Part shown: positions 5,335 to 7,918 of the stretch, one piece after another | Position numbering within the stretch: the first letter of the stretch is position 1 | Layout: the number at the start of each line of letters is the position of its first letter | Origin: a virus | Lineage: Duplodnaviria > Heunggongvirae > Uroviricota > Caudoviricetes | Strand: one strand, 5' to 3' | Virus record (IMG/VR): IMGVR_UViG_2671180921_000010 | Length of the DNA: 7,920 bases | Translations under genes and position numbers: made by a program | The notes under the pieces: model-generated | Told to the model about the DNA's origin: nothing | What the model saw: the letters and a program-made list of their open reading frames with translations, nothing else | The model's database searches: none

Positions 5335-5757
5335 GTGGCAAAAGTTTTTACACAAGAAGAGCGGGAAAAAATTAAATGGCAGGTGGTGGAACTCGTGCGC
5401 CAGAGCGGCCGTGAGACGTTACGGCAACTGGAAGCTAAAACAGGTGCGACTAGATATCTGATGAGCGTTCTTGCCAGAGAGTTGGTAGCCAGTGGCGATG
5501 TATACAACTCCGGCTACGGGTTATTCCCCTCTGAACAGGCGCGTAAGGACTGGCAAAACGCCCGCAAAAAACTCTCGAGGGCAAAGGTGAAGAAACCTGC
5601 TGTGGTTGATCCGGACCTTATCTGGTCATCACCTGACGGAGAAATACGTCGCTACGACAGTCGCCTAAACATAATCTGTCGCGAGTGCCGGAAGAGCGAA
5701 GTTATGCAGCGCATACTGGCTTTCTATCAGGGTAATTTTCAGGACGTGGCGCAGTGA
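5335..5757 (+). CDS. Hypothetical protein, 140 aa, unknown function
   Basis: GTG start at 5335 with SD AAGGGGG (5324-5330). Sequence MAKVFTQEEREKIKWQVVELVRQSGRETLRQLEAKTGATRYLMSVLARELVASGDVYNSGYGLF... Its stop overlaps the start of the methyltransferase gene (GTGA). No family recognised. Confidence 0.5.
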   Translation: MAKVFTQEEREKIKWQVVELVRQSGRETLRQLEAKTGATRYLMSVLARELVASGDVYNSGYGLFPSEQARKDWQNARKKLSRAKVKKPAVVDPDLIWSSPDGEIRRYDSRLNIICRECRKSEVMQRILAFYQGNFQDVAQ

Positions 5758-6110
5758 GTGCACCGGCAACCATTCTTGATATGTGCTGTGGCAGCCGCAT
5801 GTTCTGGTTCGATAAGTCTGACGAACGGGCGATATTCAGCGATATCAGAAAAGAAGGATACACATTACGCAATGGGAGACGCTTGATTATCAACCCTGAC
5901 ATTATCGCAGATTTTCGTGCATTATCATTTGCAGACGCATCTTTTTCGATGGTTGTATTAGACCCTCCGCATCTTGAGCGTGTTGGTGATAACGCCTGGA
6001 TGGGAAAGAAATATGGACGGCTGAATAAAGATGCCTGGCGTGATGATTTGCGACAGAGATTTAAAGAAGCCTTTCGGGTGTTGAGGCCGCACGGCGTTCT
6101 GATTTTTTAA
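5754..6110 (+). CDS. Class I SAM-dependent methyltransferase-fold protein, probably truncated by an in-frame TAA at 6108 (reading frame continues to 6200)
   Basis: Motif I-like ILDMCCGSRMF, acidic FSDIR, motif IV-like VVLDPPH (DPPH), then LRPHGVLIF followed immediately by TAA. The same frame stays open for 29 more codons (WNETQIPVSQILALTDRKPVICQRTGKKR) before a stop at 6198-6200. 118 aa is too short to complete the fold after the DPPH strand. Confidence 0.55.
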   Translation: MSAPATILDMCCGSRMFWFDKSDERAIFSDIRKEGYTLRNGRRLIINPDIIADFRALSFADASFSMVVLDPPHLERVGDNAWMGKKYGRLNKDAWRDDLRQRFKEAFRVLRPHGVLIF

Positions 6111-6372
6111 TGGAATGAAACGCAAATACCGGTAAGCCAGATTCTGGCACTGACAGACAGAAAACCTGTTATCTGTCAACGAACAGGGAAAAAACGATAA
6201 AACCCACTGGATTATTTTTATGAAAGAGGCATCCAGTGAGTAGATTCGTAAGGCTACAGATACGTATATCTGAATAATTAAATTCAGTTCTGTAAATAAA
6301 ATTTAATCCTTAACCGGATGGATTTCTGCACCCTCAGAACATCAGGAGGCCGCCCGAAAGGGCGGTAGTGAA

Positions 6373-6555
6373 ATGCGAAAGTTCAAAATTATTATTGAAA
6401 CGGGAATAGCTGGTGGAGATTTTGAGGATGTATTCGAAGTGGACGATGACGCAACACCTGATGAAATTCATGACGGAGCATAAGAAATTTTCTTTAACTA
6501 CTGCAATTACTCATACCACGAAATAAAAGACGATGAGGAAGAACAAAGTGGCTGA
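6373..6555 (+). pseudogene. Small acidic protein gene (60 codons) interrupted by an in-frame TAA at 6481-6483
   Basis: ATG 6373: MRKFKIIIETGIAGGDFEDVFEVDDDATPDEIHDGA-TAA-EIFFNYCNYSYHEIKDDEEEQSG, stop TGA 6553-6555 overlapping the next gene's start. The downstream part has no in-frame start codon. AGGAGG at 6345-6350 is separated from the ATG by a hairpin (6352-6367). Confidence 0.35.
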
Positions 6556-6724
6556 TTTTTGTTCAGCTAAATATAACATCAGTTTTGAAGAGCGGGATGA
6601 ACTATTAATGGACTATGGTGAGTTACGCGGTGGAAGTGCTGCTGATGTCGAATCCTAGCGTGATGACTATGAAGCGGGAAAAACTCCGGTCGAAGCATAT
6701 TGTGATGAGTGGGGCGATGAATGA
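6533..6724 (+). pseudogene. Small protein gene (63 codons) interrupted by an in-frame TAG at 6656-6658
   Basis: ATG 6533, or GTG 6548 with SD GAGGAAG: MRKNKVADFCSAKYNISFEERDELLMDYGELRGGSAADVES-TAG-RDDYEAGKTPVEAYCDEWGDE, stop TGA 6722-6724 overlapping the ATG at 6721 of the next gene (ATGA). No in-frame start after the TAG. Confidence 0.35.
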
Positions 6725-7008
6725 GCGAGATTAATTATCAGGAAGGGCATGAAACGGCGGGGCAAGCAAAACCAGTGACATGGCGATATCGCTACGTGAA
6801 AAAAGGCGTTACGGACTTTCAGGGGAAGTAGTGGTCTGGTGACTGGAAATATGTACCGAAAAAAGAGGATTGTAACGACAGGCCGAACTATCAAATTCAG
6901 GCCTTATTCACTGCCTCACCAGTCCCGGTTACATCAGAAGAATTGGTTAAAGCTGTGCACTTTTATGAACAACTAAAACGCGAAAATCCACCAACATCCG
7001 GCAACTAG
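6721..7008 (+). pseudogene. Small protein gene (95 codons) interrupted by an in-frame TAG at 6829-6831
   Basis: ATG 6721: MSEINYQEGHETAGQAKPVTWRYRYVKKGVTDFQGK-TAG-WSGDWKYVPKKEDCNDRPNYQIQALFTASPVPVTSEELVKAVHFYEQLKRENPPTSGN, stop TAG 7006-7008. The 58-codon downstream part is protein-like and has no ATG. Confidence 0.4.
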
Positions 7009-7262
7009 ATTAATGGGTTAACTATGTCGGTTAAACGACCAGCCAACTGAAAAAGCGGAAACCTGATTACAGGTTGCCAGATAAGGCAATGAGCTACCTG
7101 GCGCGGAACGGACTGATAAGTATGGGGAATGTTTTACGATGAACCTTTAGACTAAAGAGTTTGTAACGCTATGTAAGTGATTTTTTCTGGTTTAGATATT
7201 TATATGTCCGGCCAAATTGAGGTGTGTTTAAATGTAATTGCACATTGATTGTAGGAGGAATA

Positions 7263-7442: not shown

Positions 7443-7669
7443 ATACAGCGAACTCCATTGGTTTAGTTGGATATTTACTGTGCTGGACAAAAACGGTTTG
7501 CGGGGAAATCTTAGTTAAGTAGAATGACTGCGGGTGCTTGAGGCTATCTGCCTCGGGCATGGACACCAACGGCAGATAGAGAAAAGCCCCAGTTAACATT
7601 ACGCGTCCTGCAAGACGCTTAACATTAATCTGAGGCCAATTTCATGCTAGACACATGTAGGTTAGCCTC

Positions 7670-7918
7670 TTACGTGCCGAAAGGCACGGAGAAGCAGGCT
7701 ATTGTTAACACCAAGCTGTAATGTCCCCTTTGGGGATGCGGACGATTTCCTGGACGAGCCTGTTTAGGATTCTGTGTAAATCCCTTTTCTCCGAAGTGAC
7801 CGTCCAGCCGGTCACCGAACTCGATAATAAAGCGGCCCATTGCCATTCGCCAGTCCTTCAACGGCATCATCCATTTCTGGGACGCAGACTGGATTGCCAG
7901 CCACACCACTTTTTCCAC
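7670..7918 (-). mobile_element. C-terminal part of an IS256/Mutator-family-like transposase gene (partial; gene starts beyond the right window edge)
   Basis: Minus-strand ORF ...WLAIQSASQKWMMPLKDWRMAMGRFIIEFGDRLDGHF... matches the recalled C-terminal signature of IS256-family transposases (SKKW-MP-xxW-xA-xxF-I-F-DR). It then continues about 40 aa past the point where such proteins usually end (GEKGFTQNPKQARPGNRPHPQRGHYSLVLTIACFSVPFGT). Family assignment is from memory only. Confidence 0.4.

Follow-up and report, generated by a model that had tools for sequence, protein, structure and literature searches.

An interrupted 162-codon methyltransferase gene in a Qin-type cryptic prophage of Escherichia coli: evidence for a decayed pseudogene

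Positions 5754 to 6243 of a 7,920-nucleotide stretch of viral DNA, analysed here at its full length and called the window, are very probably the decayed pseudogene of a 162-aa, core-only phage methyltransferase, a reading in which the ancestral role set out below is included. The window corresponds to the part of a cryptic, Qin-type E. coli prophage that serves immunity and replication. The gene was killed by an AAA-to-TAA change at Lys119, a 1-nt insertion of G and five substitutions at conserved sites, and the copy in the window, judged by these changes, is inactive. A truncated methyltransferase gene had been predicted at this place, and its ORF, its motifs, the TAA and the 29 codons that follow were all found as described. 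The features of the region, all on the plus strand, are listed here.

5335..5757, +: DUF977/Ren-like gene, intact, 140 aa (Pfam DUF977, E 5e-29; phrog_142)
5754..6243, +: entire pseudogene, the ancestral 162-codon methyltransferase gene plus TAG stop, interrupted (alignment with intact copies; RefSeq)
5754..6110, +: ORF left over, with GTG start, 118 codons and TAA stop
5775..5795, +: motif I-like SAM-loop block LDMCCGS, residues 8-14 (D9, C12 and G13 invariant in 83 homologues)
5868..5873, +: codons 39-40, CGC AAT (R N), in place of the C D of the family (C39 99% conserved, D40 invariant)
5925..5927, +: codon 58, TCA (S), in place of a P that is invariant in the family
5958..5960, +: codon 69, TTA (L), in place of an F that is invariant in the family, immediately 5' of DPPH
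5961..5972, +: motif IV DPPH, residues 70-73 (invariant in 83 homologues)
6057..6059, +: codon 102, AGA (R), in place of a G that is invariant in the family
6108..6110, +: premature stop TAA, which is AAA (invariant Lys119) in intact copies
6111..6200, +: 29 in-frame codons (WNETQ...TGKKR) past the stop, and a second TAA (6198-6200)
6186..6188, +: GGG run with one G too many (GG in intact copies), giving a +1 frameshift
6187..6243, +: ancestral 3' end, now out of frame, GKNDKTHWIIFMKEASSE plus TAG (6241-6243), including the invariant His-Trp

The DPPH and the motif I residues are still present in the window copy, as seen in the alignment with the 83 homologues. The predicted order of the motifs, with the SAM block near the N-terminus and DPPH after it, was correct; DPPH lies 57 residues past Gly13, against an estimate of about 65. 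The 118-aa product has the C-terminus LRPHGVLIF and is followed by the TAA within CTGATTTTTTAATGG. This ORF did not arise by chance, since the product with both lesions repaired matches the protein family phrog_954 with an E value of 7.9e-82 and has thousands of homologues.

The lesions were called from an alignment in which the region was set against two closely similar alleles and the intact copy WP_000145671.1 (157 aa) from an O111:H8 strain. At the first lesion the window reads TTTTTTAATGG and the intact copy reads TTTTTAAATGG, the difference being an A-to-T substitution at 6108. The stop does fall at the end of a T-run, as had been pointed out, but its cause is the AAA-to-TAA substitution and not a change in the length of the run. 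Slippage in the T-run was considered as the origin of the stop and was rejected, because the adjacent A is substituted by T and the length of the sequence is the same. As a side effect, the change that created the stop also extended the T-run to six, in a segment (6076-6109) where a hairpin at 6076-6099 (8 pairs, 3 of them G-C, and a loop of 8) together with the T-run looks terminator-like with a weak match to the consensus; the terminator-like score of this segment probably means nothing.

At the second lesion, which the original prediction did not include and which was found by the alignment, the window reads ACAGGGAAAAAAC and the intact copy reads ACAGGAAAAAAC. The inserted G sits 26 codons past the TAA. 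The codons up to 6185 keep the ancestral reading, WNETQIPVSQILALTDRKPVICQRT, and then the frame shifts at codon 145; this is the reason why the readthrough codons restore the fold in part only, as was anticipated. Repair of both lesions gave a product of 162 aa ending in KTHWIIFMKEASSE (C-terminus, QRTGKNDKTHWIIFMKEASSE), with the tail KEASSE. The lambdoid prophage of strain SC418 carries DUF977, the GTGA overlap, and then a 162-aa gene that ends in KEASSE as the repaired remnant does, and a second strain has an intact version of 157 aa at the same position after DUF977. Since the repaired frame equals the intact SC418 copy in its start overlap, length, tail and gene order, the ancestral gene had 162 codons. 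It was thus longer than the present ORF and, being a catalytic core only, had no large target-recognition domain, and both of these suggestions had been made beforehand. In the window copy, no uninterrupted frame of about 150-175 codons extends through the C-terminal KTHW strand. With the TAA at codon 119 and the frameshift at codon 145, it is therefore a pseudogene member of phrog_954 and not a functional one.

The intact E. coli copies used for comparison, WP_000145671.1, the SC418 copy and the representative P0002, have about 88-89% DNA identity to the remnant. They are like the remnant in the GTG overlap and in the order of replication genes, DUF977 and methyltransferase, but differ from it in having AAA (Lys119) and GG at the two lesions and in keeping C39, D40, P58, F69 and G102. 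The extent of these substitutions was seen when 83 homologues, taken from Enterobacteria and Firmicutes, were aligned; 41 columns of this alignment are invariant and 64 are at least 90% conserved. The invariant columns include K119, which is now the stop, and H151-W152, which are now out of frame. At five of the 64 conserved columns the window copy is off consensus (C39R, D40N, P58S, F69L and G102R), while the homologues themselves depart from these columns 0.7 times on average and three times at most, and none of the 83 carries any of the five replacement residues. The invariant residues of phrog_954 are thus not all retained. The C39R/D40N change is common to every sampled allele of the lineage of the window, and the window and three other strains carry both lesions together with all five substitutions.

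Polymorphism in the remnant was compared with that in its intact neighbor. Among five alleles of the lineage, polymorphic codons in the remnant are nonsynonymous in 4 cases and synonymous in 2, versus 2 nonsynonymous and 11 synonymous ones in DUF977 (Fisher p = 0.046, from 19 codons in five sequences), a small sample that points to a loss of constraint. The pairwise dN/dS between the pseudogene lineage and the intact copies was 0.15-0.27 everywhere, and the pseudogene lineage does not stand out by it, the divergence being for the most part older than the inactivation.

In the AlphaFold model of an intact homologue, strands were placed at residues 114-121, 138-143 and 150-157 and a helix at 127-131, although the model is weak (pLDDT 68, with the N-terminal 31 residues below 50). 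Nearly all of these C-terminal elements lie beyond residue 118. The 118-aa product ends inside the fifth strand and is without the last helix and two strands of the Rossmann-like sheet, so it cannot fold into or act as a methyltransferase. In the structural search, methyltransferases acting on tRNA, rRNA, proteins and small molecules scored equal to DNA methyltransferases, and the search does not discriminate between these substrates.

About 465 complete E. coli genomes contain the region with an identity of at least 99%, and in E. coli ATCC 8739 the allele is 99.6% identical. When a 150-nt query with both lesions removed was run against 5,426 complete E. coli genomes, there was no exact match; 486 records matched at 95-99% identity, and among the matches listed the value was 98.7% over 151 nt, as expected from one mismatch and one gap, namely both lesions. 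An intact allele of this lineage was found in none of the genomes. One strain, VE-V11-M (locus L010, 1195-1360), has the TAA without the extra G, the only such allele among the 5,426 genomes. It shares a derived, IS66-flanked arrangement with strain C289, which does carry the extra G. Three origins are conceivable for the VE-V11-M allele: it may be an intermediate from the ancestry of the lineage, the dead gene may have reverted by slippage, or the assembly may be wrong at the homopolymer. One strain has an IS1 within the region, and in BL21(DE3) the match is limited to the start of DUF977, with the rest of the region deleted; both cases also point to lost constraint.

The pseudogene status is already known from RefSeq, where some records flag the gene as a pseudogene ('SAM-dependent methyltransferase; frameshifted; internal stop'), and others present it as an ordinary 118-aa CDS. 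The exact 118-aa product is found in public collections as an E. coli 'class I SAM-dependent methyltransferase'; one variant of it occurs on at least 1,000 contigs, and its cluster has 385 members, of which those listed are all from E. coli and of 118 aa or less. Independent functional homologues of about 118 aa, which would speak against truncation, were not found, and the sole 118-aa entries are this E. coli allele. Likewise, none of the 240 relatives listed as matches to intact enterobacterial and Listeria phage queries is shorter than 150 aa (range 150-259 aa).

A genome search found near-identical loci, 99.2% over 7.7 kb, in many complete E. coli genomes. According to the annotation of close matches, one strand of the window carries the exonuclease, ydfD, dicB, ydfC, ydfB, ydfA and DicA-like repressor genes, and the other carries dicC, a YdaT/CII-like gene, an O-like replication gene and DUF977, followed by the methyltransferase pseudogene, a DUF7167 pseudogene, a further broken ORF and IS remnants. 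The PHROG matches across the window are consistent with these gene assignments. In RefSeq records of the near-identical loci, the DUF7167 gene at window 6374-6556 has an internal TAA, and the ORF at about 6720-7141 is frameshifted and has an internal stop. The distal part of the rightward operon is decaying as a whole. Two RNAs were also located by Rfam, the DicF sRNA at 2032-2083 on the minus strand (76.7 bits) and the sok antitoxin RNA of a hok/sok module at 7532-7703 on the plus strand (104.1 bits). In the best-matching E. coli genomes the similarity to the window ends at 7732, and an ORF at 7670-7918 on the minus strand resembles, by reading alone, the C-terminus of a transposase; the strain of the window thus probably has a different IS junction.

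At 5754-5757, GTGA joins the TGA of DUF977 to the overlapping GTG start of the methyltransferase pseudogene. A stop/start overlap of this kind is a typical arrangement for translational coupling. The same overlap between the DUF977 stop and GTG was seen with the intact methyltransferase genes at two other loci, L007 and L008, and this conserved GTG gives proteins of 157-162 aa that include the conserved ILD of motif I. RefSeq starts these intact homologues at an internal ATG (L007, 3817-4245; L008, 3964-4407; 142-147 aa), and, from the reading frames, these starts have probably been set too far downstream.

A profile search, proposed earlier as a check on the methyltransferase similarity, detected it, most strongly with phrog_954, 'DNA methyltransferase', which the repaired product matched over residues 5-161; four or five other DNA-methyltransferase PHROGs gave weaker matches. 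A profile with a curated cut-off and the similarity of fold both assign the product to the class I Rossmann-like, SAM-dependent methyltransferases. With Pfam the gene gave a marginal match to Methyltransf_11 and a score of 16.5 bits with PF01555 (N6_N4_Mtase), below the gathering cut-off of 26.7, and no match to PF05869 (phage T1-type Dam) at E of 1 or less. NCBIfam gave nothing usable (PRK11524, YhdJ, at E 0.052), and sequence and profile searches of PDB gave nothing significant.

The intact family is large, with more than 7,000-8,000 matches per search. An intact query had 76-96% identity to members from E. coli and Salmonella. Other members occur in temperate phages of Streptococcus, Listeria, Enterococcus, Staphylococcus, Gordonia and Vibrio, with about 46-64% identity to the E. 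coli protein, and in the same range of identity with Acinetobacter, Porphyromonas, Bacteroides and Akkermansia as hosts. Members from E. coli prophages and from Listeria or Streptococcus phages were about 50% identical, with the 41 invariant columns. In Listeria phage A006 the homologue lies directly 3' of a DnaD-like helicase loader gene, which matches the position after the replication genes in the window. Literature searches found no measured activity or experimental characterisation of any member of the phrog_954 family. By comparison of its sequences, the family is conserved to a degree that is unusual among small accessory proteins of phages. Variants of 248 aa (P0009, P0090 and others) are found in Leclercia, Citrobacter, Klebsiella aerogenes and Enterobacter and have an 88-aa C-terminal extension. 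Its matches are phrog_16025 and the C-terminal end of phrog_111, which both carry the annotation DNA methyltransferase. The extension may be an accessory domain for DNA binding or regulation that two catalytic cores have in common.

Among known enzymes, the beta-class N6-adenine methyltransferase YhdJ was aligned with the family by hhalign with a probability of 82% and an E value of 1e-5 (columns 39-127 against YhdJ 11-93). The DPPH of the family falls on the DPPY of YhdJ, and the helix and strand after the motif align too; the catalytic (D/N/S)PP(Y/F/H) motif of PF01555 is thus present in a homologous context. By eye, the N-terminal LDMCCGS of the remnant resembles the C-terminal VLDPFAGS of YhdJ. 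The PF01555 order of motif IV, target-recognition domain and motif I is not kept, as motif I is at residues 8-14 and DPPH at 70-73, and none of the inserts has the size of a target-recognition domain. The PF01555 enzymes YhdJ and M.EcoGII have 294-349 aa with a central target-recognition domain, whereas the family has about 160 aa and lacks this domain. In these alignments the family looks like a beta-class catalytic core whose SAM loop has moved to the N-terminus, giving a gamma-like order, without a target-recognition domain.

M.EcoGII is a prophage-borne orphan enzyme of the beta class that is silent in the lysogen (PMC5778455). PamA from the S. aureus prophage mPhi11 is a GATC m6A methyltransferase of 141 aa with NPPY at residues 64-67 (PMC12435837). 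By its published description, PamA is like the family in being a very small orphan prophage amino-methyltransferase with motif IV at about residue 65-70, and it differs in having NPPY where the family has DPPH. It shows that a core-only enzyme is able to methylate DNA (PMC12435837). By analogy, these two precedents would support the reading of the intact enzyme as an orphan methyltransferase of phage DNA. Another candidate, yfdM of the K-12 prophage CPS-53, was considered as the same gene and rejected, as its hhalign probability against the family was 0.1%. YfdM is a truncated PF05869 protein (T1-Dam-type, NPPY; E 2.5e-23, profile positions 3-69 of 169), and its upstream neighbor is PerC-like, where the remnant has DUF977. 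At locus L006 (4113-4388, minus strand), yfdM constitutes a second, unrelated methyltransferase remnant in a cryptic E. coli prophage.

In the rightward dicC operon, where the phage replication module ends, the ancestral gene was translationally coupled to DUF977, and the enzyme was probably expressed, along with the replication genes, only on induction. It may then have methylated the replicating phage DNA at an exocyclic amino group, as N6-adenine or N4-cytosine, and such methylation would blunt host restriction. The membership and the length of the family were observed directly; that DNA was the substrate is suggested by annotation and remote homology. It is possible, but rather unlikely, that the target of the ancestral enzyme was RNA, protein or a small molecule, or DNA without sequence specificity. 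The lack of a recognition domain and the unusual conservation leave room for this, but the best remote sequence matches are to DNA-methyltransferase families, a C-terminal domain is in common with another phage DNA-methyltransferase family, the position in the replication module is typical of phage orphan DNA methyltransferases, and DNA methyltransferases as small as PamA do exist in phages (PMC12435837). As a tentative suggestion at a similarly low probability, the intact family might be a sequence-independent DNA or ssDNA methyltransferase, or act on a universal non-DNA substrate, during phage replication.

The other explanations concern the remnant itself. It is highly improbable that the 118-aa product works as a short protein in its own right, for instance as a SAM-binding half-domain or a regulator, and is maintained by selection or exapted. 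Its start and stop are found in hundreds of genomes, it is a CDS in some records, and it is still translationally coupled to an intact DUF977 gene, but this wide presence is explained by the vertical inheritance of a fixed cryptic prophage. The product ends within a core strand with two more strands missing, it is substituted at four invariant positions and one near-invariant position, including the residue before DPPH, and its polymorphism is skewed to nonsynonymous changes as compared with DUF977; moreover, the gene is disrupted by IS1 or deleted in other strains, and among the matches listed no independent short forms exist beyond this allele. We consider it still less credible, to the point of near-exclusion, that the full-length protein is made by recoding, with readthrough of the TAA and a -1 shift at GGGAAAAAA. 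Although the second lesion sits in a slippery-looking G3A6 run, this would need two independent rare events, TAA is the least leaky stop, nothing hints at a stimulatory element, the product would keep the five conserved-site substitutions, and the intact relatives do without it. The probability is equally negligible that the stop and the frameshift are homopolymer errors of sequencing or assembly in a gene that is really intact. Both lesions touch homopolymers (T6 and G3A6), and VE-V11-M differs by one G in the run; however, the stop is a substitution and not a length error, both lesions recur in independently sequenced complete genomes, and the product is present on contigs in the number given above. 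A decayed pseudogene of the core-only phage methyltransferase is the reading that we retain.

The methylome of a carrier strain, or anti-restriction effects in it, should not be credited to this dead gene, and it is misleading that some records still show a 118-aa 'class I SAM-dependent methyltransferase' as a CDS. The locus itself is of small importance, as a dead gene in a fixed, decaying cryptic prophage is ordinary. The intact family, on the other hand, is very common in temperate phages of hosts from many phyla, strikingly conserved and apparently uncharacterised, and its function bears on thousands of annotated 'methyltransferases'.
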